Below the pieces are notes generated by a model. The model saw only the letters and a program-made list of their open reading frames with translations, did no database searches and was not told the DNA's origin. Shown one piece after another: positions 1-45,281 of a stretch of 45,368 nt of DNA (within the stretch, counting starts at the first letter, position 1; each line of letters opens with the position of its first letter). The translations under genes and the position numbers were made by a program. This stretch comes from Malassezia furfur (Eukaryota), in the NCBI GenBank assembly GCA_052055015.1, contig JBQJIT010000039.1; one strand, written 5' to 3'.

Positions 1-1972
1 CGTGTAGTCCACATGAAGGTATTCACCACCGGTCCAAAAGTCTGCGTCAGTGCGGCAACGTACCCAAACAGTTGCCCAGGGCCCCCTTGTCGAACGGGTT
101 GGCCGCTGCGCGCGAGCGCTTCAGGCCCTGTCCGCCCTTCCCGCGCGTGTAGAGATCGAGCCCGACGATGGACAGTAGCGAGGCACCCATCCCTGTGCAC
201 AAGCCCCACAGCGTCCGTTTCTTACGGTGCGCGCACCCGTGCAGCTGTTGGTGGATGTCCTCGCGACGCATGCCAGCGGCCACCATGCGCTCGGTCTGCT
301 GCTCGATGAAGCCCGCCTGGGCACTCATGTTGGTGTCGCCGCGGCCACCCATGAACCCGTAGCGTCCCACGTTGCTCGCCTCGAGCGTGGTCAACTGCCG
401 CGAAATTTGCGCAAGCTGCATCACGAGCAAGATGAGGAGCCAGGCGTCCACGAGGAGGATCCACAGACTGCTGCACAGCAGCGGCCCGTGGAAGTTGGCG
501 GCGGCAAACAGCCACGGCACCGCAAATCGATCACGGTGCTGTGCCCAAATGCTTGCAGGCAGGTTGTCACGGAAATCTGGGTGAGCGCGCGACGTACATT
601 GGTACACAAGACTCAGGTACACAGGGATGCCCGCTTCAGCGGCCGCGACCATAACGATAAAGGGGCGGTGGTTGCCCAGCCCGACGCAGTTGGCAATCCA
701 CGGGCAGTGGTGGTCATGGCGCGGGATGCATGTATCGCACAGGTGGCAGTGCTTGGAGCGCAGCGGGCGGCGCGCAAGGCAATGCACGCAGTACGTCATG
801 CCCGTCAGCATCCCGCGCGACGCCAGAAGGTTGACTTCGTCCTGGCGCTCCGCCGGTGACGCCGGCGTATGACAGTGACCCGGCGAGACGGTGGCGCACC
901 ACCCCAGTGTTCCAACGACCGTGGACAGCAGCACACCCACCAACGCATGCCGAACGAGATAGGCGCGTGTATTCGGCGCCACTTCAATCGTCCACATGAG
1001 AAACAGCCAGCCCAGCGACAGCGAGAGCAGCGAGAGGAAGTAGGGCGACTTCTTCATCGCGTTCGGGATGCGCCGATCCAGCACGTACAGTCCCATCGCG
1101 ACGTGCATGACGGCAACGCCGGCGCAGAACGCCGGGGTGGCCAGGAACCAGGGCAGGTGCGGCACGCCGAAGAACAATGCGCCAAACCAGGCAAACGGAA
1201 GCACAAACAGGAGGACACGCAGCATCCGTGGCCCAATGATGCGGTGCACGGCGTGCCCATGCGTGTCGCGACCGAGGGCATAGAGCGCACTGTTGTAGGC
1301 GAGCAGCGTCTGCAGTTCTTCGGCCATGTCGCGTGCCGTCTTCCCCTCATGGTCCTTGGCGTGCAAGTCCGCGCCATAGGAGATGATGCGCTCAATGCAC
1401 AGCTTACTACCGCGTACCACCGCCCAGTGCAGCGGGGTGAGGCCCGACTCGTCGCGCGTGTCGACACTGGCGCCATGCTTCAGCAGGACGTCGACCGACA
1501 ACGCATCGCCCTGGAACGCGGCCCACATGAGCGACGTATGTCCCTGTAGGTCCTGTAGGTCTACTCCCGCGGGCGTCGCAAAGGGCCCCTGCTGTAGCAC
1601 GTACACCAACGCCAAGACGAGGCTGCTGTGTGTTGCCAGATGCAACGTGTTGAAACCCTGCTTGTCCTTAAATGTGGGATCGGCGCCACGCTCGAGCAGC
1701 AGGTGCATAAGTCCGACCTGACCATTGCGCGCACACCACTGCAGCGGCGTCGCGCCGAGGTCACCGCCCGCCGCATTGACCAAGGCGCCGTGCTCGAGCA
1801 AGAACTCGCAACACGCCATGTGCCCGTTGATCGCCGCCCAGTGCAACGGCGTCACATTTTCCGCGTCGCGTGCATTCACCAGCGAGGGATCCTCTTCCAC
1901 AATGGCCGTGAGCTGTGCGAGGTCGCCGCACTGTGCGCACCGGTGCACCGAGCGCGTCGGCTCTGTCTCCAT
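1..1972 (-). CDS. AKR1: Ankyrin-repeat DHHC palmitoyltransferase Akr1 (3' end runs off the window)
   Basis: N-terminal ankyrin repeats (TPLHWAAING, TPLQWCARNG), TM segments and Cys-rich RSKHC...RHDHHCPWIANCVG. Introns at 577-597 (21 nt) and 42-63 (22 nt); removing the latter restores the Akr1-like tail NPFDKG..NCLDFWT. Confidence 0.95.
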
Positions 1973-2028
1973 CGACTTGGAATGTGGAGAAGAGGCGTGC
2001 TGGCTTGGGGTTCGCTAGCTACGCTACC

Positions 2029-3016
2029 TCACAGACGCGATGGCGGCGACGGCGGCTCACGGTCCTCGTCCTCGGTGCCCTCGACCACCGCGGCGACGTC
2101 GTTGACCGTCTCGATGACCCATGTCGCACCCTCTAGCGTCGACAGGAAATCCAGGCCGGCACGCTCCGGCCCCTGGACGTGCGCGAAACTCGGCCCAGAG
2201 CGCAGCAGGCCAAACGTGTGGCTCGTCACCTGGGGAGCGACTCCTCCCTGCGCATGCAGTGCGGCCATGTTCATCAGGCTCACGCGCACACGGTTGACCT
2301 CCCACGCCGGCTCCTCGATCTGCTTGTACATGGTCGGCGGAGCAAATAGCGGGCCGTACTCGTTCTGCAGAATGTACACGCCCAGGTCTGGGTGGGAGTG
2401 GGACAACACCTCGCGCAAACGCTGCGACTTTTCTTGGTAGATATCCTCGTACAGCGCATTGCCGACCTTTTTGACATGGTCCCATTCGCTCGCACTGATT
2501 TCACTGCGTCAGCAAACGACACGCACCGGCGGGGCTCATTGGGCATCGCTGCAGCACACTCCTTGTCCTCATCGACCATAGCACGCAGCGCAGCGAGGTT
2601 GTTGATCGCCTTGGGCGTGCCGATCAGTCCGATCGACTTGAGACCCACTTCGCGCATCAGGCACGCACGTTCCACCCGCTCCGACACGGGCCGCAGCTCA
2701 GTGGAGCCGTCGCGGCGAACAAGGTAGCGGTGCAGGCTCTGCAGACTTCCTGGCGAGTTCAGTGCAAACATGGTCGCCGTCTGGGTCAGGAATGTGCACG
2801 TACCACCACCGTCACCCATTCACCCCAGCCAATGCTGTGCTGCTGCGCACGGGCACTGATCCGCTGGAAGAGATCCTCGAGCAGCGCCGCGCGCGGGGGT
2901 CGCGCAGGCAGCCCACCAGCACCAGCGGGGATCGTCTTGTTCGCCGAGTATGCCGACGCGCGCGCAGCGTACTTGGGCGCCTTGAGCAGGGCCTTGAACG
3001 CTGGGGTCAGGGACAT
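2029..3016 (-). CDS. AhpD/carboxymuconolactone decarboxylase-like fungal protein
   Basis: Three ORF fragments join in frame via GT-AG introns at 2781-2803 and 2504-2526 (23 nt each). Motifs [24 protein letters not shown] and SHPDLG..I...YG.L resemble the fungal AhpD-like family (recalled). Confidence 0.7.
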
Positions 3017-3761: not shown

Positions 3762-5280
3762 ATGTCGCTTCCCGCTAGTCATGAAGTCCTAACGTTCCTT
3801 GCGGATCCGAATCCGCAGGTGCGACAACTTGCGATGTCGCATGTCGTCGGCTTCAGTGCGAAAGACAGCCCCAGCCGCTCGCTCCTCGTCGACAAGTTGA
3901 CTGACCCCGAAGGACAGCCCCTCCGCATCTGGGATGGGTCTGAGCTGAACGTCGTCGAGCAGATCAAGGAGCTGTGCCACGACCAGCCCGTATGTGTAGA
4001 TGTCTGACGCAGCTCACAATGCATGATGCACTGAGTGCTCTGATCAACCTCTCCGATAGCCCCTCGGTGGCGCTGCGGATCGGTGACGAAGAGTTTCTGC
4101 GATTCTTGGTCGCGTACATTGGCGTACGTACATGCATACTAACAGCAGGATTCGGTGTCACTTTTGGCAGACCTCGCGTGCATGCTCCTGTCCAATCTGA
4201 CCAAGTTTGAGCCAGTGTGTGCGCGTCTTCTTAACCTGGAGGTGGAAGACCGTCCATTCTACTCCTTCTTGTCCCCGCTAGACCTGCAGCTGTCGTTGAG
4301 TGGAATGGATGCAGACCCCAACGACCCCGACTATGAAGAGCGCAAGCGGATCACCGCCGAGGCCACCGAACGGTTGAGCAAGTCGGTGCGGGTAACCGAG
4401 GCGGTCAAGATGCCAGCCCTCATCAAGCTGCTCCGTGCGTTTGAGGAAGGTGCGTCGGTGGAGTCGAGCAGCGCAAGTGCTTCCAACATGCGCGAGCGTA
4501 TTGCGGACACCAAGCGAGATGGAAATGAGCGTCCTGTCGACATCAATGCCCAGGGGCGTCCTGAGGTGCGGCGCAAGTCGGACTGCAACTTCTTGGCCAG
4601 TGTCTTTGCGAATGTGACGGTTCTGCCGCGCGGGCGCGAATTCTTTGTGCAGCCGATTGTAGACGGCGACAAGACGTCTGCCGATGCCTATCCGGTTGGG
4701 CGCATCATGGTGTACACCGAACATGCCAACCTCATTCGCCGTGGTGGTGTGATCAGTGCGCTGAAAAACATCCTGTTCATCAAGCACGCTCACAAAATGC
4801 TGCTGGCACCTGCACCGGCAATGAAAGGCTATGAGGATCATGCGGCGCCCGTGGATGTGCTTCCCTATGTGCTGATGCCGCTCATCGACGGCAAGGAGCT
4901 GAGCAAGGTCGACCTCGAGGACCAGGAGGATCTGCCGGCCGTGTGCCAGCTTGTGCCAGAGGACAAGCCACGCGAGCCAGACACGGCACTGCGTATGATG
5001 TTGATCGAGTGTCTTCTTCTGCTGTGTACCTCGTTGTACGGCCGTGAGAGTCTGCGGCGCCGCGGCGTGTACATTGTGGTTCGCGAAGCCCACCTGGCCG
5101 AGCACAATGAGGAGGTGCGTTTGTGCACGACTGACACAGATTACCGAAGCCATTGCCCGCCTCGTCAACCTACTTAAGCGCGAGGAGTCCGAAGCAACGC
5201 AGCGCGAGGCTGAGGAGGACGTCGAGTTTGCCGAGGAGGCGGAGGAGGACGACGAGGACCTGCAGCTGGAGGTGTTGTAA
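3762..5280 (+). CDS. HGH1: Hgh1/FAM203 eEF2 chaperone
   Basis: LINLS, ADLACMLLSNL, FLASVFANVT, RRGGVISALKN and REPD..LR.MLIECLLLLC motifs, plus an acidic tail. Introns 3990-4012, 4124-4148 and 5115-5139. Confidence 0.93.
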
Positions 5281-5331: not shown

Positions 5332-6157
5332 ATGGGCGACGGACGCGGCCAACAGAGTGCGCCCGCCTGGCTGATGGACTTTACGTCCAATGCTGCCGAG
5401 ACGTTTGTCACTGCGTACTATGCGGCAGCAGACTCGCCACAGCGCGCACAGCTCCTGCCGTCGCTCTACCTCCCTACCTCGTCGATCGCGTGGAATGGCA
5501 ATCCCATCAGCGGCGCGGCGCAGTTCGCGCAGTTGTTGGACGCGCAGCCCGGCTCTCAGCACGAAATCCAGTCGTTTGACTGCCATCCACTCGGCACGAT
5601 GAGTGCATCAGGTGCGTACCAACGTGGCGCATAGCCCGCTGGGCAAGGTCACGACGAGGCAGCCCACCTCTCTCGTGCCTGCCTGGGCGACATTGCCGTG
5701 CTCTTGTAAGGACTCGGTGTGCTCATGTTCAACGCGCGCTAGAGTAGTATGCAGAGCCGACATGCGCCACATTTGCACGCTGAACACGCTTACGCCAGAC
5801 CGTCGCGACGCGCCGTCGCTCCTGCTTGTCGTGTCAGGCACCGTCGCCCACTACACCCCCGAGAGCCTCGCGACGAACGCGAGCAGCGCGCCCAAGTCGG
5901 CGACTACGCCCGCGTCGGCGGCCGCGAGCAAACGCAAGTTTGATGCGGATGCGCCGCTGTCGACGCATCCCCGCGTGTTCAGCCAGTCGTTTGTACTGGT
6001 CAACGGCAACGGCAGCAACACCGAGGGCGGTGTGCCATTCGTATGGACGCAGTCGCGCTCCGTGTCCAAAGGCAAGTCGTCCTCGGCAGACACCGACGGC
6101 CAAAAAACCGTTGCGCGGTACTTTATCCAGGCTGACGCGCTGCGATTCGTAGGCTGA
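5332..6157 (+). CDS. NXT1: NTF2-like export protein (Nxt1/Mtr2 family)
   Basis: AETFV..YY, WNGNPI, HEIQSFDCHP, LLVVSG and RVFSQSFVL motifs of the NTF2 fold. One 187-nt intron (5612-5798) joins the two frames. Confidence 0.85.
5634..5765 (+). ncRNA. Intronic H/ACA-like guide RNA, putative U1 snRNA Psi6 guide
   Basis: Two hairpins (5634-5688 and 5700-5757), each followed by ACA (5690, 5760). The hairpin-2 pocket is AGG/AGUAU, 14 nt from the terminal ACA. The H box is imperfect (ACAUUG). Confidence 0.6.
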
Positions 6158-6200: not shown

Positions 6201-7366
6201 CTACGTGCGCCGGTCAATCGAGCCGTATGATGGGTCGGGGTTGTGCACCGTGACGCCCTCGAGCTCTGGCGCGCGGCGCTCGCGGTTGGCATACGCGGCG
6301 TTCAACTCGTCCTGCTCGCGCGACGGCGGCACCTCGACTTCCACCTCGTGCGCCTGCTGTCCGCCGGGGTGCGTGTGGCAGATGATCAGGAAGCGGTTCT
6401 TGATCAGTCCCGGGACCACTAGCGAGACGGTGCGCACGAACATCGACGTGAACATCACGATCGACATCGAAAACGGACGCGAGCGCGGGCCGAGCACGGG
6501 GATGGACTTGAGGCCCAGCACGGAGGCGTCGAGGTACATCGACGCAAGGTACACGCTCACGTCCGTGTTCATGCCCACCCACACGGCGAGGAGGATGCCG
6601 AGGATAACCTGGACACCGATCGCGTATCCGAGCGAGTGACTCAGGTGATCGTAGCCACGCCACGGATCGCGCACCCAGTCGTTGTCGAGGAAGAGCTGCT
6701 GCCAAAACAGCTGGTGGATCACCAAGACGGTCATCAATCTGGGTCAGTAGGCGGCACGTACTTGTTCGGGATGTGCACGAGGAACAGCTCGAATGGGTGC
6801 ACCCAGCGCGGACGGTACTTGGCGCGCAGCACCGCAAAGTTGACCAGCGACAGCACACCGACACCGGCCAAGATATAGCAGCCGATGGTCGTGGTGAGGG
6901 GCGTGTCGAGAACGAACAGGATGAACCAGAGCGCCATGAGGTAGTTTTCCACGGCAAGGCGCGAGCCCGTGGTGCGCACGATACAGCGCTGCGTGTGCGC
7001 ATTCTGCGAAATGACGGCGAGCATGCAAAAGCCGACCTGGAACAAAAAGAGTACAAAGATGTACATCAGGAACATCTTGGGCGCCGCGGTGATCAGTGTC
7101 GGGTGGCTCGTGAACACGTCGCTGATCGACGGCACGATCATCACGCCGACGATCGCCGACACGATGCAGCACAACACGCTGAGTGGCGTGTTCATCTGGA
7201 GAAACACGAGCGAGCGCCGCTCACGCGGGTTGAGCGGCAGCGACGGCGCCTCCTCTTCCTCCTGCTGTTGCTGATGGTGCTCACGCTGCTGTCTGTTCGA
7301 CATCGGCGGCGGGGACTGCGACATCGGCTCGCGCGGCAGCAGCCGCTCTTCCTCCTCCCGCGCCAT
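6201..7366 (-). CDS. Multi-pass membrane protein of unknown function
   Basis: About 7 hydrophobic segments and an N-terminal EEERLL dileucine-like motif. Intron 6739-6761 (23 nt) joins the two ORFs. Confidence 0.8.
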
Positions 7367-7495: not shown

Positions 7496-9516
7496 ATGCC
7501 TGCGAGCTCGAAGGATTCCAAGGGAAAAGGGGTGGCTCCGACCTCGTCGGAGCAGGAGGAGCGCCCCGAGATGCCCGCGCGCACGCAGTCGGGCAATGTG
7601 GTTCCGGAGCTCGACGAGCATCCCCTTCCCGACGAGCACAAGGCCAAAATTGTTGAGAAATAGTAAGTCGCCTGGTGCGGATCTGACCCAGCCTTGTTCG
7701 CCCCGACTCTGCCTCGGAGGTGTCCGAATCGCAGGAAGATGGCCAGGATGAGCCGACTGAGCAAACGAACCGCTCGGGCTTTGCCGGCGCGAATGCAAGC
7801 GCCATCTCAGGCTACGTCGGCGACGAAGAAGAGTACCAGGGTGCGCACCACACGCTCGGCGGTGCCATCACGGATGACCTGTACCGATGGGCACACCAGA
7901 ACAAGCGCCCGCGCCGCCCGCGCAGCGAGAGCATGCACGCCATTAATACAAGCTCCATCGAGGCGCCCGTGGACCGCGACCTAATCAAGCAGCCGGGCGG
8001 GTTCCGGCGTACCTTTGTGCTGAACCAGGCCGCGGAGCAGGGAAAGGCGCCGCCGCGTGCGCTGCGCAGTTTTGTTGACTTCCTCATGCTCTACGGGCAC
8101 TTTGCCGGTGAGCATCTCGAGGACCTCGAGTCCGAGGTGGTCGATGCATTTGAAGACACGCAGGGCGGCGACGATACCCGTGCCGCGTCCGTGGCCGGCT
8201 ATGCGCCGGGCCAGGGCACGGGCGAATCGTCGCAGTTGCTCGTGCATAACGTGCACGGTGAGATTCCCGCCTTCCGCCCTCGGCCGCGCCGCAAGCAGGG
8301 CGAGGCGACCGTATTGGATGCAGTGCTGATGCTTCTCAAGTCGTTTGTGGGCACGGGCATCCTGTTCTTGGGCAAGGCGTTTTTCAATGGCGGTATTCTC
8401 TTCTCAACGGCGGTGCTGTGTGCCATCGCGATCATCTCGCTGTGGTCGTTCCTGCTGCTGGTCAAGGTGAACTTGAAATACCCCGTGGGCTTTGGTGACA
8501 TGGGCGGCCTGCTGTATGGCCCGCGCATGCGCCAGGCGATTCTCTTCTCCATCGTGTTCTCGCAGCTGGGCTTTGTCGCTACGTACACCGTGTTCATCGC
8601 CGAAAACACCCAGTCGTTCGTGCTGTCGATCACCGAGTGTCGCACCAAGATTTCGATTGGTTTCTTGATCTTTTTGCAGTGTCTCGTGTTCCTGCCGCTG
8701 AGCTTGGTGCGCCGCATTGCGAAGCTGTCGTCGGCTGCGCTGGTCGCCGACGTGTTCATTCTCGCCGGCATCTTCTACCTATTCTACTACGAAATCGACC
8801 ACCTGATTACCGACGGCATGGCCAAAGTCGTCTTGTTCAACCGCGTCGACTTCCCTCTGCTGATTGGCACGGCGGTGTTCACGTTCGAAGGCATTGGACT
8901 GGTGATTCCCATCACAGACAGCATGAAGGAGCCGCAGAAGTTCCCGCGTGCCCTGACGGGCGTCATGATCGGCGTGATGCTGCTCTTCTCCTCTGCAGGT
9001 GTACTGTCCTACGCAACGTTTGGAAGCGATGTTCAGACGGTCGTCTTCTCGAACCTGCCGCGCGACTCGCGCTTTGTGCAGGCGATCCAGGTGCTCTACT
9101 CGCTCGCCATCCTGCTGTCGCTGCCGCTGCAGCTCTTCCCCGCACTGTCCATCCTAGAGCTGGGTCTGTTCCGCCGCAGCGGGAAGTACGACTGGCGGAT
9201 TAAGATGGAGAAGAACTTCTTCCGCTTCCTGGTGGTGATCTTCTCGATGTTGTGTGCGTGGGTCGGCGCAGACGACCTGGACAAATTCGTGAGTCTGATC
9301 GGCTCCGTGGCCTGCGTTCCGCTCGCGTTTGTCTACCCGCCACTGCTGCATCTGCGCGGCGTTGCCCGGACACGCACGGAGCGTGTGCTCGACATTACAT
9401 TGGCTGTGTTTGGTGTCGGCTGTGCCGTGTTTGCCGGAGGGCAGACGTTGCAGCTCATGCTCTCCCCCTCGGGTGAGAAGCAGGAGCCGGTGTGTATCCC
9501 ACCGAACCATGCATAG
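7496..9516 (+). CDS. AVT3: Vacuolar amino acid transporter Avt3/Avt4 (Aa_trans family)
   Basis: PGGFRR, LYGHFAGE, LLKSFVGTGILFL, FTFEGIGLVIPI and LQLFPA motifs. Exon 1 starts at ATG 7496; intron 7663-7691 (29 nt). Confidence 0.93.
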
Positions 9517-9556
9517 AATATCAAGACGAAATGTGATATAGGGACTATAGACAAAA

Positions 9557-11127: not shown

Positions 11128-13410
11128 ATGTCGACGATCGTGCACTCGTTGCGGGACTACCGTCCCCCAACCAAGGCACAGCAGTTTGCCGAGGCATTCA
11201 GCCTGCCACCCGATGAGGGTCCCTATGTCGATGCTGCGGGGAATCGCGCTGAGATTGTCTCGGCGATCCTTACGCTGTCGAATCCCAATGAAGAGGGCCA
11301 GGAAGACTTGGTGTACGCCGGGCGCCTGACGCTCACGCCCTCGTTCCTGTGTTTTGCGAGCCAGGCGGACAGAGGACGAGGCTGCCGCGTGGCGCTCCCA
11401 CTGAGCACAGTGCGCCGCGTTGAGCGGCTGAATACTCGTGACGCCGTCTTTGCCCTGAGCATTACTGTGTGGCACGGGATGCAGCTCATCTTCCAGCTGA
11501 ATGCGCTGCGGCCCTCGTGTGAGGGGTTTTGCCACGCACTCCGTGACCGATTGCGCGCACACCTGAGTGATATGAAGAAACTTAAACCGTTCCTGGGCGA
11601 GTGCTACAGCGAATATCTGCTGAAGAACGCCGCCGAAGTCACAGGGGAGAGCGGTGGCCCGGACGGCGGTCCCGAAGCCGCGCAGACGGGTGCGCTGATT
11701 GACCTTGGTCAGGAAGGTGCCGCCGGCGCAGGCGCACCGGCGCGCCTGCCGTACCACATGGGCCTCGGCGCGCAGTTTGGCTTTCCTGGCGACCCGAAAA
11801 AGTACGTCGCGCAACTGACCCAGACTGAAAGAAAAGAGCAAAATGCGCCTGTGGAAAGACTACCTCACATTGCACGGGCGCAACATCACACTTCTGCGCT
11901 ACCCACAATTTACGCGCCTCGTCCAAGTCGGTCTACCGAACCAGCTGCGTGGCGAAGTGTGGGAGATCAGCTGCGGCTCCATTCTGCAGCGCATGGCCCA
12001 TCCCGGCAAGTACCAGCAAATTCTTGCCGAGCACGAGGGGATGACGAGCACGAGCACCGAAGAGATCGAAAAGGACCTAAACCGCAGCCTGCCCGAATAC
12101 GCCGCGTTCCAGTCACCCGAAGGCATCGAGACGCTGCGTCGTGTGCTGGTGGCATACAGCTGGAAGAACCGCGAGCTGGGGTACTGCCAGGCGATGAACA
12201 TTGTCGTCGCGGCGTTGCTCATCTACACGTCCGAGGAACAGTGTTTCTGGCTGCTCGATACGCTGTGTGAGCGGCTGCTGCCCGGCTACTACACCCAGTC
12301 GATGGCCGGCACTTTGCTCGACCAAAAAGTGTTTGAAAACCTGGTGCAGACGACGATGCCGGTGCTGCACGAGCACTTTGCCAAGCATGACATGCAGCTG
12401 AGTGTCGTGACGCTGCCATGGCTGCTCTCGCTATACATCAACAGCATGCCCATGGTGTTTGCCTTCCGCATCATCGACTGCTTCATGGCATTTGGCTCGC
12501 GCGTGCTCTTCCAAGTGGGTCTTGCCATCCTCAAAATCAACGGTGAAGACATTCTGCAGCTGAACGACGACGGAACGCTGATCGGGGTGCTGCGCAACTA
12601 CTTCCGCACGCTTGGCGACAGCGCCTACCCGGAGAGCGCCGACCCTCGCCGCCGGCAGGTGACGCGCTTCCAGCAGCTGCTTGTCGTGGCGTTCCGCGAG
12701 TTTGGTCTGATCACGAACGAGACCATCGACGCGGAGCGCAAACGATTCCGGCAGCAGATTGTCGAAGAGATCGAGGCATTTGCACGGCGGTGTGCGATCC
12801 GCAACCTCAAGTCGCACGGCTGCTTCAACAAGGCGCAGCTCGGACTCATCTACGACCAGGTGGTCGAGGCGATCTACCGCGCGCGGCATGCGCCCGAGTC
12901 GCTTACGGCCGGCGATGCGGCGCCAGTGCGCTCCTCCTCGCTGCTCGACCCGACACAGGATCTAAAGGAGATGCGCATCAACTTTACTACCTTTAGGCTC
13001 TTCCTCAGCGAGGTTGCAACGTGGGCGCGCGACGAATACCTGGTGGGCAACGGCCTGCAGGAGCGCATCGAGCGCCGCATTCCCGACCAGGGGCTTGCGC
13101 GGCGCCTCTTTGCCTACTGGGACCAGGAGCAGTGTGGCTCGCTCTCGTTCCAGGACATTGTCACGGGTCTCGACGGCCTCATGCGCACCGACGGCGACGT
13201 CAGCGCCACGATCGAGTGGTTTTTCCGCTTGCACGCGAATGGCAAGGAGAAGCTGACGCGCAACGAAGTGCTGACGCTGTCTGAGTCGTTGCTCTTCAGT
13301 ATGTATGCCTACTAACACAAGTGTACCGGAATGAACCCGGCGACGACCACCTGGGCGCCATCTCCCAGCTCATCACGCAGGCGTTTGAGCTTGGCGGGTC
13401 AGATGCTTAG
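11128..13410 (+). CDS. MDR1: GRAM-TBC Rab GTPase-activating protein Mdr1/Gyp2
   Basis: GRAM-like N-terminus, IEKDLNRSLP and GYCQAMN TBC motifs, and an EF-hand-like region. Introns 11802-11823 and 13299-13321. Confidence 0.92.
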
Positions 13411-14117
13411 GCCGCGTCGTGCTGCGCCTGCTCGTAGCCCTCGAGCACCTGCCGCGCTAGGCTCACGCCGAGGACCTCGCGTAGCTTCTCCGTAGGATCC
13501 TCGCCCTTAGCATCGGCCTCTTCCATAATCCGTTGCACCTGCTCCATGAGCTGGTCCGCCTTGTCGTCCACGTCGGCATCATCGGCGTCGTCCCCCAAAT
13601 CGGCGGGTTCCTCCTCTTCCTCCTCGCCGGCGCGCTGGAGCAGCTCGCTGCGAGGCACCGCCGCCTCGCCCGTTACAGAGCGAAGGTACTCAGCAAGCTC
13701 CTCGTGCTCGTTCATATCGGCGTGCTGGGCGGCCTGGGTCAGCAAGCGACGTACCGTGATGCCCTCATCGTTCTGTAGGCTGGGGTCCGCGCCAAACTCG
13801 GTCACGAGCAGCTCGGCGGTCGGTCGGTCCTCACAGAAAAAGAGGGGCGTATCGCCATCCTCGTCGCGCACATTGACCGCATCCTTCGCCACGCCAGGAT
13901 AGCGCAACAAAAGGCGCAGCAGGTCGTGACGCCCGTAGGACGCCGCAGCATGGATCGGCGTGTACTGAACCATATCGCCTGTCACCGGCGTGACGCCGCC
14001 GTGCTCCAGCAGCAGCTTGACGCGTTCCTCATCTCCGTCAGCAACCGCAATCCAAATATTGGGGCCGTTGTGGACGCGCTCGGCAATCTCCTCTTGGCTC
14101 GGGGTCGCCGTCGGCAT
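13407..14117 (-). CDS. Small acidic ankyrin-repeat protein (YCR051W-like)
   Basis: NIWIAVADGD, YTPIHAAASYG and DEDGDTPLF motifs. In-frame 21-nt intron at 13734-13754. Confidence 0.85.
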   Translation of the reverse strand: MPTATPSQEEIAERVHNGPNIWIAVADGDEERVKLLLEHGGVTPVTGDMVQYTPIHAAASYGRHDLLRLLLRYPGVAKDAVNVRDEDGDTPLFFCEDRPTAELLVTEFGADPSLQNDEGITVRRLLTQAAQHADMNEHEELAEYLRSVTGEAAVPRSELLQRAGEEEEEEPADLGDDADDADVDDKADQLMEQVQRIMEEADAKGEDPTEKLREVLGVSLARQVLEGYEQAQHDAA

Positions 14118-14187: not shown

Positions 14188-14513
14188 ATGGGCAAGCGCA
14201 AGAAGTCGACGCGCCAGCCAGGTGCGGGCAGGACCAAGACGCCACCGCTGGGTAGGTGTTGCGACTCACACCAGACACCGTTTTTACGTGTCTCTTTTGC
14301 AACCACGACAAGGCTGTGTCGTGCAAAATGTACGTGCGTGGCTGACACAGCGATGACAAGGCGCGCATCGGTTACCTGAGCTGCAAGATTTGTGGGCAAA
14401 AGTTTTCCACGGACACCGATACGCTTTCGCAGCCGATTGATGTATACTCGTACGTGTCATACTCACCCAGGCAATGGATCGACGCTTGCGAAGATGTGGC
14501 AGAAGAGGCGTAG
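14188..14513 (+). CDS. ELF1: Transcription elongation factor Elf1
   Basis: Spliced product MGKRKKS...FTCLFCNH...LSCKICGQ...DVYSQWIDACE. Introns 14252-14274, 14330-14350 (in-frame TGA) and 14450-14470. Not recovered intact by the ORF track. Confidence 0.95.
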
Positions 14514-28298: not shown

Positions 28299-29574
28299 TT
28301 AACCAGCATAGGGGAGAATACGACCTTCCTTGGCACTTTGACGAATAAGCCGAAGGATCCGAGTAGACGTCGCGACGTGTTCGAGCTTGATGTCCAGCAG
28401 TTTGTCCACAATACTAGCAGCTTCTTCCACGTTGGGAGCCGCATTGACTGCACAGATGGTCTCGGCCAAGTTTGTGTATAGATCGATGTAGCGACCAGGC
28501 AGCGTGGGAATGCTGGCAACTGCAAGCTTTGGGGGATTGGTTCCAGACACTTCTTGGTTTGGTTGACTCGTTGTAAGCTGCGCGAGACGCAACGAGGATG
28601 GCGCATCGCTTGCATACATGCCAAACACGTCTGGATGGGTCGCCGGGGTCCAGCCCAGCTTGAGCTGACCCTCCTGAGGGTCGGTACCTTTCTTCACGTA
28701 AGAGCCGAGCGTGCCTTCCACGCGGAAACGCGACTGCTCTGCATCTGTGTGTGCCGAAAGGCAGGTTGAGCCAAGGACCGCTCGAAGTGCCCCAAGACGT
28801 CGGCCAGGTGTAAATGTCTCCTCCGTAGGTGCGTCACCCGGCGGGTAAGTGAGTACGGCCAGCCAGTCGTCATCCACATTTTCGGGACCTTGACCGCGTT
28901 GGTTCTGGACCATGCCAAAAACGGACTCAGGCGCGCCGAACAATGCAACGGCTTGGTCTACAAGGTGCGCACCCAGGTCCCACAGCATACCACCTCCCTC
29001 GGTTTCTGGGTCGACGCTTTCCCGCCATCCACCTTTGGCAATAGGCCGGAATCGGTCAAACCGCGACTCATAATACGTTGGAAGACCCAGCGCCGAGGGG
29101 TTGGGCCCACCCTGGTGCTTGATCAACGACTTTAGCGTTAAATAATCCCCATCGAAACGGCGGTCTGCGTTAGCAAACGCACGTACTCTGGTAGACGGTG
29201 CAGACTTTCCCCACAGAACGTGCGAGCTGGGCCAACTTGTCCACCTCGTCCTCATGGATAGCCACTGGTTTCTCGACCAGAACATGCATCTTGGCGCGAA
29301 GCGCCTTCTCTGCGTACGGGTAGTGCGAAGCATTGTTGGTAGTGATGATCACCAGTCCTCCTTCGGGCAGTGCACTGAGCGCAGCATCAATGTCCGGCAC
29401 GACCTGGACATCGGGAAGGTCCAGTGCGGCATTCGGGGACGTCGATCCTTCTGGACGTGGGCGTTGCAGCACAACGTGCAGCTGAAATTGGTCCGGTAAG
29501 GACTTCACAAACGGAAGATGGAACGTCCGGGCCGAGTTACCGTACCCAAGCAAGGCGACAGGGATGGGCGACAT
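28299..29574 (-). CDS. Gfo/Idh/MocA-family NAD(P)-dependent oxidoreductase
   Basis: GYGNSARTFHLP, HVLVEKP, YQNRRFD and DLGAHLVDQ motifs. Intron 29165-29186. Confidence 0.92.
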
Positions 29575-29853: not shown

Positions 29854-29908
29854 TATGCCGCACGAAGAGAAAAAGTGCTGGCGCTGCACCGCGCTTAACA
29901 GACCTTCG

Positions 29909-29916: not shown

Positions 29917-29931
29917 GTCCGTGCAACCACT

Positions 29932-30243
29932 ATGGGGAAGCTCAATGCGCCGTCGTTGCGGCAGTTTATGCTGCATGCCGAGGCGCTAGCGCTCTATCGC
30001 AAATATTTGCGGGCTACGAGGTGTACGTGATGTGCTGATCTAGTTATACCTACCATGTCAGCAAGGCGTGAAACAATCGCATGGTTCCGCGATGAATTCG
30101 AGCAAGCACGGCACGAGACCGATGTAGGAAAAATCGAGTCGCTGCTCAAGCATGGTCGCATTCAACTCAAGCAGACAGAATCTGGGATGATGCTTAGCAG
30201 TACAAGTGGCTCATATGTGCCACTACGGGGAGGCAGAGGGTAA
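29932..30243 (+). CDS. LYRM2: LYR-motif mitochondrial protein (LYRM2-like)
   Basis: SLRQFML..EALALYRKYLRATR...RRETIAWFRDEFE. The 21-nt intron 30023-30043 contains an in-frame TGA. Confidence 0.85.
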
Positions 30244-30245
30244 TT

Positions 30246-33605: not shown

Positions 33606-33687
33606 CTCGCCGGCTGTCGACGACGTGGGGGAACCTCCACATGAGCAAATTTTTGGATGGCAGACTCCAAAAACACACGATGCAGGG

Positions 33688-34838: not shown

Positions 34839-34845
34839 ATACCCA

Positions 34846-36637
34846 CTATTCGTCTACCAACTCACGTTTCAATACTTTCCCAGCCGCACTGTGGTTAGAG
34901 CTAGCACATACCTGGTAGGCAGCGAATCAATCCAAGTCAAGCCGCGCAGCTTCTTGTAAGGCGGCACACGTGAATTTACATAGTCCAGGATCTTCTGGGT
35001 GCGTTCCTCCTCGGGCTGGTTCTTCGCGTCGTCATTAACCACGACATATGCCCAAGGAAGCTCGTTGCGAGTAATATTGTCCTTCTTGATCTTGCCAACA
35101 ACGGCGACGTCCTTCGCAATGTCGACCTGGCGCACGATATCCTCCAGTTCGGATGCGGAAATCTGGTAGCCGTTGTATTTGATCACGTCTTTGATGCGCT
35201 CGCGGATGGTCAGGTAACCTGGGTAAGCTCAGCACAACGAACCATCTTGGTCAATCGAGACCACATCGCCCGAGCGGAAGTAGCGCTCTGGGTCCGAAAT
35301 GTTGGGCACAAACGCCTTGGCATTGGCTTCGTCGTTGTCTTTATACCCCAACATCATCTGTGGGCCACGCAGCCAAAGCTCGCCTGCCTCACCAGGTCCG
35401 ACGTCTTTCCCGGTCTCAATGTCAATGATACGCGCCTCAGTGTTGGGGACAAGGCGGCCGACGTCGAGGTGGTGCCGCTTGATGTCGGCCTCGGTCTGGA
35501 GCGCAATGAGCGGTGACATTTCTGTCATGCCATAGCCGTCGGTGACGGGAATGCCATTTTTCTTGTACACCAATGCACACAGCTCCTTGGACAGCGATGC
35601 AGCGCCGGATGCAAACGAGCGGATGGAGGAAACATCGTATTTTTCCGCCAAGGGTGACGTGGCCATCGCCATGAGCATGGGCGGAACGACAAACATGAAC
35701 GTCACGCGGTATCGCTGTACCGCCTCGAAGAAGTGTTCCACGTTGAAGCGCGAAAATATCACACAGGGTGTTGAGGTGTGCAGAGAAGCGACGGCCATCA
35801 ACAGGCCGTAGCAGTGGAACTGCGGCAGAATCGACAAGTGGAACTCGTCTGTGCCGTCCTGTGGCGGCAGCAGCGGCTGGTCGTACCACCCAGCATCGTC
35901 AAAGCGTGGCTTGTTCATGCGGCCTCCGAGCGTCGCAACTGTTTGGATCACATTGGAAATAATGTTGTAGTGCGACAGGCAGACAACTTTCGGCATACCC
36001 GACGTGCCGGAGCTGAAGCAGTACACGGCCACATCCTTCGTCGGGTCGCATACAGGCACGTCAATCTGCTGGGAAGCCTTCATCATGGGATCTTTGAGGA
36101 GTTTCTGTAGGCTGCGCGGATGGTCCTCCTCAAAAACGTATACCGGTACGGAATCGGCGGTCCGTGCGTACTCTTGGGCGGCTGCATTGGCCGCGGTAAA
36201 GGTCGCCGCAGACGCAAACACGGCGCGTGGGCTCACCTTTTTCATCATTCTAAGAAGCTCCTCGCCCGTGAATTGCGGGTTGAGCAAGGCCGGAATTCCA
36301 CCTGCGAGCATTACACCCAGGCAGACCATCAAGTAGTCGTGCTGTGTTACTTTTTTTTTGGCCGCACACGTACCTGATTTTCGGTAAGAAACAGGACAAC
36401 ATCGCCCTTTTTCCATGGCCCGCCCGGGTGGTCGGGCTCGAGGAGGCTTTTTGCGATGGCATAGGCACCGTCGCGCACATCGAGCAGGGTAAGCGCCTTG
36501 GACTCGCGGCGCGAGCCGAACGGCGAGGGATGCAAAACCGGGACCTCGTTCCTGTCTTTGTCGAGGTAACGAAAGACAAACTGCGGCAATGACAGGTCGC
36601 TCGGGAGCTTCTGCTCGTTGTAGAGCGACTTGTACAT
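34846..36637 (-). CDS. 4-coumarate-CoA ligase/luciferase-like AMP-dependent acyl-CoA synthetase
   Basis: FSSGTSGMPK, GYGMTE, GELWLRGP, FRSGD, RIKDVIKYNG and SAAGKVLKR motifs. Introns 36342-36373, 35219-35242 and 34889-34911. Confidence 0.92.
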
Positions 36638-36701: not shown

Positions 36702-37355
36702 ATGATCCCGGGCTGGAAAGCGTGGATCCAGGAGGCGCTGGCCGATCCGAAGGGCGACCGCTCGGCGGGTGCGTGACGAACTTATGTAGGCTATTACGCA
36801 TTAGCAACGCTGTGTGGTGGTGCGCCGCACGTTCGCCACGTCGTGCACCGCGGCTTTTTGCGCGATGGTACGACGCTCGTCACGACGACCGACGTCCGTG
36901 CCCCCAAAGTTGAGGAGATCCGTGCGCAGTCAGCCGTTGAGCTCGCATGGTGGATCGCACCGGCGAAAGTCCAGGTACGTGTGTGTCTCATGCAGTTTCG
37001 CATCAGCGGCACCGCTACCGTGCTCCCTCACTCCGCCCACGCCTGGCGAGGGACTGAACCCGGGGATCTGGATGCAGAGCGTGAGCGTGTGTGGAATGCA
37101 TTGGGTCCCGGTCTGCAGGACACGTTCCGAGGTGCACCACCTGGTGTGTCGCTCGCAGATGCGTCGCGTGCGGCGCCGCCTGAGGAAGACGCCTCTTCTA
37201 TTCCTACAAGGTATGGGGAGTGACGCTAACGCAGCTTTGCCTTGCTGCTCATCGAGCCGCACAAAGTCGATGTTTTGGATCTCGCTCAAATGAAGCGCAC
37301 CCTATACGAGCGCACAAAAGAGGAGCAGTGGTCCGAGACTGAGATCACACCGTAG
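36702..37355 (+). CDS. Pyridoxamine 5'-phosphate oxidase-like FMN-binding protein (YGR017W-like)
   Basis: LAT..PHVRHVVHRGF, TTDVRAPK, QFRISG and FALLLIEP..VD.LDL motifs. Introns 36769-36789 (in-frame TGA), 36975-36995 and 37211-37234. Confidence 0.85.
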
Positions 37356-37408: not shown

Positions 37409-37753
37409 TTAGGCGTCTTCGAGGTTCCGGTCGAGAAAGTCGCGGATCTTGGCCGACATGGTATCACGCACCGAGTTCGGCAACGTTTCTGGGTGAGGCT
37501 TTGCACCTACTTTGCGCGTACGGTCCAAGCTTGGCGACGAGCGTAGGCAGGTGCAGTGGATCTTGCGCGCGTGCCTCGCCTGAGTGAGTGTGTGGGGCGT
37601 ACGTTCGGCCTGTTCGCGCAGCTGGGTATCCCATTCGCTCTCCTCAAGGAGCTGCCGGAGCTGTGCAAGCAGCGTATTCCACTCGCCTGTCGCGACGAGG
37701 CGCTGGTGCAGCAGGTTGAGCAGCTCCTCGCAGCTTTCCCCACCGTCGGACAT
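37409..37753 (-). CDS. SUS1: Sus1/ENY2 (SAGA/TREX-2 subunit)
   Basis: LHQRLVATGEW..L...L...L.ESEW...LR...P.SVR..M.AKIRDFL. Introns 37580-37602 and 37489-37510. Confidence 0.9.
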   Translation of the reverse strand: MSDGGESCEELLNLLHQRLVATGEWNTLLAQLRQLLEESEWDTQLREQAERTPHTLTQARHARKIHCTCLRSSPSLDRTRKVGAKPHPETLPNSVRDTMSAKIRDFLDRNLEDA

Positions 37754-41416: not shown

Positions 41417-41493
41417 GGTGGAGGGGTGCGGGTGGAGGCCGTGTGAAGCGCTGGGCCCCGGCGTGCGGGCGGAGCCAACGTTGGTCTACCTCG

Positions 41494-44400
41494 CTACATG
41501 TTCGCGTACTTGTCAAACTTGTCGCGCGCGGCCGCCTTCAGGGCCGAGTTGCGCGTTCTGCGTGAGGGGCGAGACGTACTGTTTGAGGAAGTCCTTGGCG
41601 CTGCGCTCCAAGTCGCTCATTCCCTCGCCGAGGCTGTGTGAATATGGGTGCACGTACTTGGAGAGAATTTCGTCACGCTTGTGGAGCAACTGCATGTTGA
41701 TCTGCGCCTGGGAGCGCGCGCTGCCGTTGGCGAGGCTCGTGAGCGACCTCTGGTACGAGCTCAGCCAGCTTTCGCGCGGCGCGTCGGCGGGCGGCGTAGC
41801 GGTGCCTGTGCCCTTGCCCGGCGCCGCCTTGCCGCCTGACGCGGGCGCTGCACTCACGGACGGGCGCGGCGACTCGACCACCGGCACTTCCGGCACGTAG
41901 GTCACGCGCGGCGGCAGCTTGGGCTGTGGCGGGCGCCGTGTCCCGCCGATCACCGCGTCGAGCTGCGCGCCGGGCGACAGCGTCGACACGGCCGAGGTGC
42001 CGAGCCACTGCCCGAGGCTCGCAATGTACCCCCCCGCGCCGACGCCCGGGGCGTACGGGAGCGGGCGCGGCGTGAACAGGCACATATTCGGCATCTCGCC
42101 GTGTGGCTGCGTGGCGAAGGCCGTCCAGAGGCGGAGCTGCTGCCCGTCGGAGAGCTCGGCAAAGTCGCCCTGCGCCTCGATGCTCACCTTGGGCGGCGCG
42201 GCGACCACCTCGAGCGACGGCGGGACGTGGCGCTGGATGCGGTGAGCGGTGTCAAGGCGCGGCAGCGTAAGCGCCGTGATGCTGCTAGGCGACGCGGTCA
42301 GCAGCACGCGGCCGTGCGGGCGCGCGACGACCTGCGCGCCGTCCGCCTTCTCCGGGAGGTCGGCGTGGCCGATGCGCGGGCCGGTGACCTGGTCACGCAT
42401 CGTGGCGCACGACTCCGTGACCACAAGGAGCAGGTGGAAGTGTTGCGTGCTGGACGCCATGCCACCGTCCGGCGACTCTTGCTCGATGCGCGCGCGCTGC
42501 ACGTCGTCGGCGGTGCACCGCGCCGTGTGGCCGGACGGGTCGAGCACCGCGGCGGCGAGCACGGGCCCCTGCACGTCGAGCTGGACGCCGGCGGAGCGGA
42601 AGCCGAACCAGTCGCCGAGGCTGCCCTGCTCAAACGTCCACACCGTTGCGTAGCCGCTCGTGCGCACGACGATGAGGCGCGGCGCAAGCATGCGGTCCTC
42701 GGCGATGCGGCACACGGCGAAGGTGAGCGCGGCAATCTCGCCGCGTGCCTCGCCCGCGACGATGCGCGCCTCGCGCTCGCCAATCTGGCGCGAGTAAAAG
42801 TCGTGCGCACCAAAGCCGGCGCGGACGACCATCTCCTGCGAGCGCGCATCGGCCACGACGAGCAGGCCGCCGGACGCGACGGCGCACAGGCCCGTGTCGC
42901 TCAGCGCCAGGCACGTCGGCGGCATCGGGAGCAGGTGGAGCATGGCATGCGCTGGGTGAGCAAGCGACGTACGTTTGAAGCCCGGCACGTGCGCCTGGGC
43001 GGTCGCCTCGAGCGGCGTAAACTCGGGCAGCGGCGCGCTGTTGGCGCTCGGCGTGTCGTGCAGCGCAAGGGCGTGCAGCGCATCGGCGGCCGCGGTGCCG
43101 GCATCGCCCACGAGCGCCGCGGGCGCGTACGCAAGATGCAGCACGTGGCCGGTGGTGAGGCGCACGGCGAGCTCCGCGGCGTCCCACGCCGGGACGACGT
43201 CGGCGACCTGCATGCGCATCGGGAAGCGCTGCAGCGGCTCGAGCGCCGGCGCACCGATCGCCGACGGGTGCAGCACAACGTCGCGCACGTTCGTCGAGAG
43301 GTGCGGCAGCGGCGCAGGGAAGGGGCGCTCGAGCACCGTGCCGCGCCGCGCGTCCTCCACGCCGAGCAGCAGCAGGTGCGGCGACGCGTCGTGTACACGC
43401 ACGCTGCCGTCCAGGTGCCAGGTGACGAGCATGCGCGGCTGGCCGTTGCGCGCAATGGCGGGCGCATGCGCGCGCGTGGCGCCACCCGTGAGGTGCGGCG
43501 TCGCAAAGCCGCCCATCGCGATGTCGGGGTGGATGGCGCCTTTGGGCGACGCGTGCGCATCCTGCACGAGCCGCCGGTAGGTCGCGAGCGGCACCGAGTA
43601 CGTCTTGGCGCCCAGCACCGCGCCGCGGCCGACGCACTGCAGGGGGAGCGGCAGCGTAAGCCGCACGTACGGCGCGCTACTCTGTGGCTTGGGCGGGAAG
43701 GAGTACGACTCGAGGCCGCGGTGCGTCGTCTGCGCCGCAAGCGACGGCAGCGACTCGTCGGGGCCGACGAGAACCAGGATGGCATAGGGGTCGTACGCCC
43801 CGTTGTAAAAAGGGCTCAGGCGCGGCAGCAACACAAAGTCTTCGACCGTCGCGCTTGTGCGGTACACCGACAGGTGGCGGGCAACGAGCGCGTCCTGCTG
43901 CGCGCGGCGTGCCTTGTACTGTGCCTCGGGCGTGGTGCTGGTCCACAACGCGCTCGGCGCCGCGGGCGGCAGGTGGAAGGCGTGCAGGCATGCCGCGTTC
44001 TGGCGCACGGGCGTGCCGCCCATCACGGTGAGCACGGTGCCCTGTGTGCCGGTCTCGTTGGCATGCGCCTGCTGTGCGGCGTCGGCCGCGGCGCTGCCGC
44101 TGCTGCCGCTGCCCAGCACCGACGCGGCCGACTCGTACCAGCCGAGGCCGGGGAACGCCGACCAGGCGAGCTTGAAAATGGGCTCGCGCGCGCCCGCCGA
44201 GCGCCGCTGCGCGAGCTCTTCCGGGGCGGTCGGGCGGTCGACGTCGACCTCGTCGAGCGTGCGCACCTGCAGCGGTTTGTCCTCGTCCTTGATCGACCAG
44301 AACGAGATGCACCCGTTCTCGTGGCCCATGGCAAACTGCTCGCCGTCAGGGCCCCACGCGATCGCCGTGGCAGGACATGCACGCTCGCTCCAAATCTCCT

Positions 44401-45281
44401 CCATGGGCGCGTCCGGCTGCGGCCCCGGCGCGCCGGGCAGCAGGCGCAGACGAAACGCACGCACCGCCGCCTTGTCGCGCACCGAGTAGAGCACCGCACC
44501 GCCCTCGTAGCACAGCAACAGCAAGTTCAAATCGCGGGGATGCGTCTTGATGTCAATGATCAGCGGGACGTGGAGGCGGCTCGGCGCGCCGGGCTCGTTG
44601 GTGCGCCGCATCGCCTCTTCCTCGTTCCACCACAGGTTGGGGATGCGGTACGGCGCGGGCGCACACCGCTCGAGGTCGTACGCATCTACCGTGCCATCGG
44701 CAAGACCGAGGAACAAGTGGCTGTGCTCGGCAGTGACCTCGACACAGAGCACGGCGTTGCGTGCACTGTGCGTCGCCGTGCGCAGCGGCGCGTCGGCGAT
44801 CTGCATCGGGTTGGCGCCCGCGCTGCTCGCGGTCGGCGGCGCACGGCGCGCGCTGCCACGCAGCGTCGCAGCGTGTGGGTCCTGCCGCGACAGGTCGTAC
44901 ACGCTCAGGTTGTCTTTCTCGTCGATGCACACAAGCAGGTAGGTGTCCGACTTGAACACGAGGTGCTTGACGCGCAGCGCGGGGCGCAGCGTGATAGACA
45001 GACGCACGGGCGGCGCGCCATAGATATGCACGGTGCCTGCCGAGGTGCCTGGCGTAAGTCGCTCCCTACGTACCGACGGCGAGCAGCCCGATGCCGGGCT
45101 CGTACGCGAGCGCCGACACTTGGCCGGGCAGCGTCAGCTGGTCGAGGAAGCCCTCGGCGAATTTGGTGTCGTCACGCAGCTCGCCCGACCAGTCTCGCAG
45201 GCGTGCATTGAGCGGCGCAAGCGGCGTCGCGGGCTCGGCGTGCCCGCCCTTGGCCTTGCCGACCTTTTTGAGCCACGACAT
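41494..45281 (-). CDS. SRO7: Sro7/Lgl/tomosyn WD40 exocytosis regulator
   Basis: LAYEP..GLLAVGT..G, HPRDLNLLL and REPIFKLAWS motifs; C-terminal SNARE-like coil. Introns 45049-45073, 42952-42972, 41634-41657 and 41558-41579. Confidence 0.9.

Follow-up and report, generated by a model that had tools for sequence, protein, structure and literature searches.

Genes and introns of the window

The stretch of Malassezia DNA analysed here, called the window throughout, is 45,368 nucleotides (nt) long, and its genes are interrupted by GT-AG introns that are, with one exception, 21 to 34 nt in length. After intron removal, 26 genes have uninterrupted frames from ATG to stop, two of them running off the window ends. 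Among them are an Akr1-like ankyrin/DHHC gene, ELF1, SCY1/ppk32, GRASP, two GMC oxidoreductase paralogues, a Sus1/ENY2 orthologue and Lgl/Sro7. The closest named proteins indicate that the window belongs to the genus Malassezia: the best named matches are M. furfur proteins at 95% (ppk32) and 89% identity, followed by M. psittaci at 80%, with M. vespertilionis, M. pachydermatis and M. cuniculi ranking lower. Guanine-cytosine (GC) content is about 0.6 overall. It dips to 0.52-0.54 between 25 and 35 kilobases (25001-35000), where gene modelling called for a codon model of its own, and climbs to 0.70 towards the right (40001-45000).

We modelled the genes with a finder that accepted GT..AG introns from 10 nt up and used no length prior, and then curated the models. 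All intron calls draw on the DNA letters, protein homology and published papers. The models yielded 56 candidate introns, one of which (2648-2668) proved false, leaving 55 GT-AG introns. Their lengths are 21 nt (15 introns), 22 nt (13), 23 nt (10), 24 nt (5), 25 nt (5), 26 nt (1), 27 nt (1), 29 nt (2), 32 nt (1), 34 nt (1) and 187 nt (1). The median is 22 nt, 48 of the 55 fall between 21 and 25 nt, and none of the 55 in the window is shorter than 21 nt, a size not far above the lower limit known for any splicing machinery. Because the length distribution jumps from zero to its maximum at 21 nt, it has the shape of a wall and not of a tail. A preliminary description of this DNA had reported just over 50 GT-AG introns, all but one of 21-34 nt and none below 21 nt, as in our census; it counted 14 of exactly 21 nt, a class that stands with 15 members instead.

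The 54 short introns comprise 33 whose length is not divisible by three and 21 whose length is (the 3n class). Of these 21, 9 hold an in-frame stop and 12 are stop-free, so that nonsense-mediated decay could not act on retention of the latter. Seven 21-nt introns listed in the preliminary description as carrying in-frame stops (starting at 14330, 17080, 16239, 15256, 27095, 30023 and 36769) were placed correctly, and each would introduce a stop if retained.

Splice signals and the 21-nt floor

Every one of the 55 introns begins with GT and ends with AG. The counts of internal signals below take in 55 short candidates, including the false 2648-2668, unless stated otherwise. Three donor hexamers, GTACGT (25), GTATGT (8) and GTGCGT (7), together account for 40 of these candidates. 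A occupies position 3 in 44, G position 5 in 54 and T position 6 in 50, in keeping with a GTRNGT-like consensus. U12-type introns have the 5' splice site consensus RTATCCTT, and a U12-type start ([AG]TATCC) is absent from the 12 donor hexamer types found. Near the 3' end lies a branch box, most often CTGAC (18), CTCAC (12) or CTAAC (7). A YTNAY motif is present in 54 of the 55 candidates, the remaining one having GTAAC at an equal distance, and two introns (4124-4145 and 13299-13321) contain the full TACTAAC. Judged by their ends, donors, branch motifs and frame restoration, these are U2-type GT-AG spliceosomal introns.

From the branch A to the 3' end there are 5 nt in 41 candidates and 6 nt in 11, together 52 of the 54 with a motif match, and 46 of the 54 real short introns have C at position -3. 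Only 1-2 nt separate the branch motif from the AG, so a polypyrimidine tract has no room, as the preliminary description had said. On the 5' side, the spacer between donor hexamer and branch box is 6 nt in 15 candidates, 7 nt in 16, 8 nt in 8, 9 nt in 6 and 10 nt in 4, and no real intron of the window has a spacer below 6 nt. The presumed branch A lies at position 16 or later in every real intron, mostly 15-19 nt from the 5' end. The 21-nt floor thus results from 16 nt between the 5' end and the branch A plus 5 nt beyond it (16+5). In the 21-nt class, 12 of the 21 positions are invariant or nearly so. The motif counts bear out the architecture first proposed for these introns: GTACGT, about 6 nt, CTRAC or CTCAC, then NNAG, with the branch A near position 16 and 5 nt from the end.

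A single candidate departs from this pattern. The 21-nt GT..AG stretch at 2648..2668 (minus strand), in a conserved unnamed gene at 2029-3016, has its A at position 12, 9 nt from the end, and it is coding: its seven residues are present in all 14 homologues. Since the sole off-pattern candidate turned out to be coding sequence, it provides a useful control on the anatomy.

We compared these signals with chance expectation in two scans. At lengths of 21, 22 and 23 nt, a loose motif scan gave 15, 12 and 12 matches; 30 shuffles put the expectation at 1.6-2.2 for each length. A composite motif scan, run on both strands with 100 dinucleotide shuffles, took in all spacers of 0-30 nt. It returned no match at spacers 4 and 5, followed by 16, 11 and 8 at spacers 6, 7 and 8, where 0.6-0.8 were expected per spacer (0.6 at spacer 6). 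Eleven composite matches at spacers 0-3 were rejected as introns. Seven are inner GTs of real introns, and the other four break the frame, lie on the wrong strand or fall in coding sequence that is kept in a paralogue. In the five genes aligned to homologues, no GT..AG stretch is hidden in a model-specific insertion. The 21-nt floor is real in this window and far above chance.

Precise excision, gene by gene

Evidence on the junctions came from single exons, unspliced read-through translations and scripted alignments of spliced models. Alignments to homologues took in 5 of the 26 genes, and Pfam profiles and the sequences of solved structures were used besides. Alignment to homologues, to a paralogue or to solved-structure sequences backs 28 of the 55 junctions: all 13 in SCY1, four each in Lgl and GRASP, two each in the Akr1-like gene and the unnamed gene at 2029-3016, and one each in ELF1, a PNPOx-like gene (the weakest of the 28) and a GMC oxidoreductase. 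Six further junctions are supported by Pfam profile continuity, in DUF384 (1-35, 36-54), Duc1 (1-67, 67-90, later 113-241) and UPF0029 (1-44, later 74-107). The remaining 21 were called from frame and motif. The view of the preliminary description that these are real spliceosomal introns holds.

SCY1/ppk32 (minus strand) is the most densely interrupted case, with no model-specific indel at any of its 13 junctions relative to 10 homologues that extend to Mucoromycota and Ascomycota. Junctions are gap-free at 15155..15176 (22 nt), 15497..15518 (22 nt), 15788..15811 (24 nt) and 15890..15914 (25 nt), and that at 15373..15394 (22 nt) likewise shows no model-specific indel. Three gap-free 21-nt introns contain in-frame stops (15256..15276, 16239..16259 and 17080..17100). 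Two others of 21 nt, at 15704..15724 and 15991..16011, are 3n and stop-free; both are absent in 9 of 10 homologues and appear as 7-residue inserts in the M. furfur model. The 22-nt intron at 16678..16699 has a weak donor, GTACAG, and its junction, which crosses a highly conserved motif, is gap-free in 9 of 10 homologues. Another of 22 nt, at 16886..16907, is also gap-free. At 17152..17177 (26 nt) the junction is gap-free against one homologue (P0006), with a 2-residue indel relative to six more distant ones.

The M. furfur ppk32 model itself (P0001, 611 amino acids; window 14523-17212, minus strand) keeps the two stop-free 21-nt introns as 7-residue inserts, omits other segments and has no N-terminal exons. 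Such faults look like annotation errors caused by tiny introns. Three metagenome loci (L001-L003; GC about 0.45, taxon uncertain) encode SCY1 relatives at 53-54% identity and offer anecdotal support. L002 has introns at 2 of the 13 SCY1 positions in the window (16239..16259 and 16886..16907), where its candidates measure 22 (or 26) and 25 nt; it reads through the region of eight window introns. L001, which was not mapped position by position, has candidate introns of 24-41 nt.

At the other end of the window, four Lgl/Sro7 introns (minus strand) were aligned to nine homologues. The junction at 42952..42972 (21 nt, 3n, stop-free) is gap-free in all nine, as is that at 41634..41657 (24 nt, 3n, stop-free), where three of the homologues read into the orthologous intron. 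At 41558..41579 (22 nt) five of nine are gap-free, and the other models are truncated or run into the intron. At 45049..45073 (25 nt, stop inside) seven of nine are gap-free and two lack the region. GRASP (plus strand) was compared with 15 homologues. Its 24-nt intron at 23434..23457 leaves no model-specific insertion, in an N-terminal region that is variable. Reading through the 27-nt intron at 23522..23548 produces an exact 9-residue gap against solved GRASP55 chains, and the spliced form is gap-free against homologues. The junction at 23734..23767 (34 nt) is gap-free in 14 of 15. That at 24152..24176 (25 nt) is gap-free over an invariant motif in 13 of 15, and the two nearest models run on into the orthologous intron.

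Several gene models of relatives, P0037, P0038, P0040 and P0042 for Lgl and P0046 and P0048 for GRASP, diverge exactly at splice junctions and end soon after. They diverge as if reading into the orthologous intron, which suggests that intron positions are conserved across relatives. Three other models (P0017, P0024 and P0035) are fusions of neighbouring genes, joining the Akr1-like gene to the unnamed gene at 2029-3016 or Lgl to an LCCL/DUF1308 gene, because the intergenic spacers are very short. Since relatives' models mishandle these introns and our own finder called one false 21-nt intron, annotation and proteomics on the genus need a minimum intron length of about 20 nt, and 3n candidates have to be checked. 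For that annotation, the fixed 16+5 layout offers an inexpensive filter that can be tested.

Closer to the left end, the Akr1-like gene (minus strand) has a 22-nt intron at 42..63 that is not 3n, contains an in-frame stop and has a junction conserved in P0017. Its 21-nt intron at 577..597, in the DHHC region, is 3n and stop-free, fits 16+5 and is gap-free against P0017 and P0024. Solved-structure searches of this DHHC region returned mostly ankyrin matches or alignments that stop short of the 577..597 intron. In the unnamed gene at 2029-3016 (minus strand), the 23-nt intron at 2504..2526 is gap-free in 14 of 14 homologues and that at 2781..2803 (23 nt) in 13 of 14, the M. furfur model being 2 residues short there.

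ELF1 (plus strand) has three introns. The 23-nt one at 14252..14274 restores the frame and has the canonical motif; that at 14330..14350 (21 nt) holds an in-frame stop, with the downstream exon opening at Elf1 profile position 39; and reading through the one at 14450..14470 (21 nt) leaves an exact 7-residue gap against solved Elf1 chains. The GMC oxidoreductases are tandem paralogues (18710-20850 and 21361-23226, plus strand); of about 620 aligned residues, 317 are identical. In the first, a 29-nt intron (18855..18883) follows the signal-peptide exon, and its junction is gap-free against the second paralogue, which has no intron.

Profile continuity supports introns in three genes on the plus strand. 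The DUF383/DUF384 gene contains a 25-nt intron at 5115..5139, where DUF384 positions 1-35 end the upstream exon and 36-54 open the downstream one. Its 23-nt intron at 3990..4012 restores the frame, removes an in-frame stop and has the canonical motif. The 22-nt intron at 4124..4145, required by the frame, has an ambiguous acceptor because its branch A lies 3 nt from the first AG and 6 nt from the next in-frame AG. In this tandem acceptor (4124-4148), the first AG abuts the TACTAAC box, which is off-pattern, and the second, 3 nt on, stands at the usual 6 nt. The intron may therefore be 25 nt long (ending at 4148), or both acceptors may be used.

In the Duc1/DUF1769 gene, profile positions 1-67 lie upstream and 67-90 downstream of the 21-nt intron at 26365..26385. 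The next two, at 26454..26475 (22 nt, stop inside) and 26537..26559 (23 nt), share the continuity from 67-90 before them to 113-241 beyond the exon between. The last, at 27095..27115 (21 nt), has an in-frame stop, and the exon before it runs to profile position 241 of 246. The RWD/IMPACT gene has introns at 18092..18114 (23 nt) and 18177..18201 (25 nt) flanking a 20-residue exon; UPF0029 positions 1-44 precede the pair and 74-107 follow it. The first SCY1 exon (17180-17212, minus strand) overlaps the start of the RWD/IMPACT model at 17137 (plus strand), and the true IMPACT start is probably a downstream ATG.

The PNPOx-like gene (plus strand) has introns at 36769..36789 (21 nt, in-frame stop, downstream exon opening at profile position 23), 36975..36995 (21 nt) and 37211..37234 (24 nt, in-frame stop, canonical motif). 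Support for the middle one is weak: reading through it gives a 7-residue gap against 2i51_A, and 2ou5_A aligns ungapped through it. The Sus1/ENY2 orthologue at 37409-37753 (minus strand) has just 100 codons and two introns, at 37489..37510 (22 nt; frame, canonical motif) and 37580..37602 (23 nt; frame, with EnY2 profile positions 4-38 ending the upstream exon). Budding-yeast SUS1 is likewise unusual for its two introns.

An AMP-binding (acyl-CoA ligase-like) gene on the minus strand has three introns. That at 34889..34911 (23 nt) is placed by frame, AMP-binding_C positions 1-70 of 76 ending the upstream exon; that at 35219..35242 (24 nt) contains an in-frame stop and separates the AMP-binding and AMP-binding_C domains; and that at 36342..36373 (32 nt) has a stop inside, the branch motif GTAAC and a downstream exon that opens at profile position 58. 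In the GRAM/TBC RabGAP gene (plus strand), the 22-nt intron at 11802..11823 restores the frame between GRAM upstream and TBC downstream, and that at 13299..13321 (23 nt) is placed by frame, a stop and the canonical motif. A GFO/IDH/MocA oxidoreductase (minus strand) has a 22-nt intron at 29165..29186 with a stop inside, its N domain ending the upstream exon and its C domain following in the next. In a LYR-motif gene (plus strand), the 21-nt intron at 30023..30043 carries an in-frame stop, with LYR profile positions 21-58 in the downstream exon.

Frame and canonical motif place the 23-nt intron at 6739..6761 (minus strand) in a membrane protein gene at 6201-7366 and, with a stop inside, the 29-nt intron at 7663..7691 (plus strand) in an amino-acid transporter gene. 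Frame and motif also place a 22-nt intron at 25999..26020 (minus strand), after a 3-codon first exon of a GH5 glucanase gene whose start codon choice is uncertain. The 21-nt intron at 13734..13754 (minus strand), in a small ankyrin gene, has the least support of all 55. It belongs to the 3n class, contains no stop, and was called from a motif that matches the consensus perfectly with 16+5 spacing.

The only long intron, 187 nt at 5612..5798 (plus strand), lies in an NTF2/Mtr2-like gene, where the upstream exon matches the first half of NTF2/Mtr2 profiles. It restores the frame, has a stop inside, the usual donor and a canonical CTTAC 6 nt from its end, and we regard it as a less certain prediction than the others. 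No Rfam family reaches the gathering threshold in the window, and hence no small nucleolar RNA was found in this intron.

The first gene-finder passes had joined neighbouring genes through spurious introns of 100-300 nt, which were removed on inspection. Calls at 9490-9595 (106 nt) and 38381-38416 (36 nt) were dropped altogether; those at 16678-16789 (112 nt) and 41451-41579 (129 nt) each turned out to be a 22-nt intron, with a stop codon after it in the second case. In a FUSC-like open reading frame, four in-frame candidates (36, 21, 69 and 18 nt) are unneeded for the frame. Three of them have weak GTACAT donors, and the 69-nt one overlaps a Pfam FUSC_2 match. The frame at 33729-34835 (plus strand) is open for 369 codons, has weak ankyrin matches and has its first start codon well inside; on the opposite strand runs the FUSC-like gene, whose 5' end it overlaps. 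A GT..AG stretch at 33715-33740 (26 nt) could link it to an upstream ATG, and was too weak to be kept as an intron.

The cause of the floor and short introns elsewhere

We take as a starting point the observed lengths and motifs, the step at a 6-nt spacer and the exact excision as judged by protein homology. From the signals, it is probable that these are ordinary U2-type GT-AG introns that have been reduced to the minimum length able to accommodate the splicing signals. Three elements would make up such an intron: a strong GTAYGT donor, a variable spacer of at least 6 nt, and a composite branch and 3' element consisting of CTRAC, 1-2 nt, usually C at -3, and AG, with the A of CTRAC as the presumptive branch point. 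The floor would be the steric minimum of an otherwise conventional spliceosome. The helices of the 5' splice site with U6 and of the branch site with U2 may need a linker of a few nt to sit in the catalytic core, and 5-6 nt may be the shortest loop that returns the 3' AG to the active site. The branch site and YAG would probably be read as one unit, with no polypyrimidine tract, and deletion pressure in a compact, host-associated genome could have pushed the introns against the wall. Only the 5' spacer varies and its distribution starts at its maximum, which is the shape expected of deletions against a hard minimum.

The preliminary description went further and proposed a modified spliceosome. 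On that proposal, a 5' splice site and a branch A separated by 15 nt leave no place for U1 and U2 together, and early assembly takes a different route, an explanation we consider unlikely. Its variants, in which U1 leaves before U2/SF3b clamps or the 3' end is recognized without U2AF65, with matching changes in splicing factors, seem to us no more probable. The geometry behind it is real: a 6-nt spacer, a branch A at 16 and no polypyrimidine tract. Published sections on human introns of 43-65 nt raise the same steric puzzle, the A complex covering 79-125 nt, and describe SPF45 replacing U2AF on a subset of short human introns with truncated polypyrimidine tracts (PMC4463651, PMC8363638). However, the splice signals of the window are strongly canonical and not degenerate, conventional U2 small nuclear RNA and U2AF are reported in the available parts of a survey of other lineages with 15-27 nt introns (PMC13644364), and a flexible conventional machinery accounts for the same data. 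There is a small chance that the 16-nt wall, with the branch A 5 nt from the 3' end, falls below the span of a canonical U1 plus U2 prespliceosome and sends most of these introns through an altered early pathway; the joint claim, which adds sequential instead of simultaneous U1 and U2 binding and one-step reading of branch site and AG without U2AF65, is doubtful to the same degree. If it were true, the window's yeast would be the first tractable model (culturable and transformable) for spliceosomes on introns of about 20 nt. Modified assembly is a possible reading that echoes a question already posed for short introns, and these data do not establish it.

Two other explanations concern the calls themselves. 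The floor could reflect sampling or the search, with shorter introns lying outside the window or invisible to motif and frame. The window has just 54 short introns, and a stop-free in-frame intron lacking the usual motifs would escape our models, 21 genes lying outside the homologue alignments. We find this very unlikely: the finder allowed introns from 10 nt without a length prior, the composite scan from spacer 0 gave nothing usable below 6, all 26 frames close without shorter introns, the five homologue-aligned genes hide no GT..AG insertions, and the rise at 21 nt is abrupt, as at a wall. That the interruptions are instead sequencing errors, pseudogene lesions or sites of translational recoding can be set aside with near certainty, because errors or decay would not carry such signals: GT..AG in 55 of 55, with a shared 5' motif and a shared branch motif at constant spacing. 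The interruptions also vanish exactly in alignments to homologues from distant fungi, and orthologous interruptions stand at the same positions in relatives.

Several points nevertheless count against the preferred reading, that of ordinary introns shrunk to a steric minimum. Frame and motif are the basis for 21 of the 55 introns, and motif alone for one of these (13734-13754). One 3n candidate (2648-2668) turned out to be coding, and the PNPOx-like junction is gapped against one solved chain and ungapped through the intron-encoded residues in the other. The supporting homologues are not fully independent, because many are predicted proteins of the same genus. Intron removal was judged from DNA and protein homology alone, and the branch point from its motif. 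With 54 short introns in 45 kilobases and none of 20 nt or less, a genome-wide share of shorter introns of up to about 5% is still compatible. Finally, the step at spacer 6 fits a steric wall and a wall set by early recognition factors alike.

Tiny introns are already on record for Malassezia in the form of summary statistics. Table 2 of the M. sympodialis annotation paper gives 5350 introns in the curated set, with a mean of 30 base pairs (bp) and RNA sequencing (RNA-seq) support for 5271 (99%); its TopHat/Cufflinks runs allowed introns of 10-2000 bp, and the part of its supplement available to us presents intron sizes as a cumulative plot only (PMC5389616). For M. restricta, Table 1 of PMC9241646 lists an average of 37.2 bp and a median of 30 bp, and the annotation in PMC6473144 admitted introns down to a length of 20 at first and of 15 afterwards. 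Both species belong to the same genus as the window and share the size scale of its introns. A review calls Malassezia introns "very short" (PMC7426719). Table 2 of an earlier genus-wide annotation gives M. globosa an average of 76-79 bp (PMC4634964), so tiny introns are easily missed and the trait is not uniformly visible in print. In the accessible portions of open-licence papers and preprints, we came upon no text that states a 21-nt floor, the 16+5 anatomy or a 21-23 nt mode for Malassezia. The sharp floor and its anatomy are thus a refinement that we have not found in print. The aligner STAR has a default minimum intron length of 21, so floors at 21 nt in RNA-seq data need care; the floor described here is independent of any aligner.

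With a median below about 30 nt, a narrow spread and a position against a lower bound, the window introns belong to the ultra-short class. The preliminary description had likened their sizes to those of ciliates, nucleomorphs and microsporidia. The sizes do match those of ciliates, microsporidia and myxozoans in the available sections of a 2026 survey of ultra-short introns (PMC13644364), but the scale had already been printed for Malassezia. Those sections mention Malassezia zero times, give myxozoan intron medians of 22-27 bp and conclude that the machinery is of conventional U2 type, as the authors also state for Stentor. The description's term "free-living fungus" was mistaken: Malassezia is a host-associated yeast with a compact genome of 7-9 Mb (PMC7426719), so it conforms to the general association of tiny introns with genome compactness.

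The open question of how spliceosomes operate on introns smaller than the footprint of the machinery itself has already been raised in print, in the sections of PMC4463651 and PMC8363638 at hand. As described there, human introns of 43-65 nt resemble those of the window in being shorter than the A-complex footprint, some with a truncated polypyrimidine tract. They differ in being 2-3 times longer, rare in their genome and often weak in their signals, whereas tiny introns with strong signals are the rule in the window. Budding yeast, like the window, relies on near-invariant 5' and branch motifs, not on a polypyrimidine tract, but its introns are typically 100-400 nt long with tens of nt between 5' site and branch. 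Compared with such introns (GTATGT, TACTAAC), most window introns have only 15-19 nt from the 5' end to the branch. The mean S. cerevisiae intron is 397 bp (PMC8476143).

A culturable yeast in which the normal intron is 21-23 nt would be a handier system than ciliates, nucleomorphs or myxozoans. Introns of about 25 bp are given for Paramecium and Nyctotherus in the accessible part of PMC5014332. As far as the available portions of such reports go, ciliates, microsporidia, dicyemids and myxozoans resemble the window in having medians in the 20s against a lower limit, mostly in compact or parasitic genomes. The window is unlike them in its GC-rich, yeast-like signals, with a near-invariant 5' hexamer and the CTRAC box. 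In Paramecium, 3n introns without in-frame stops are depleted; the window shows no such depletion, with 21 of its 54 short introns being 3n and 12 of these stop-free.

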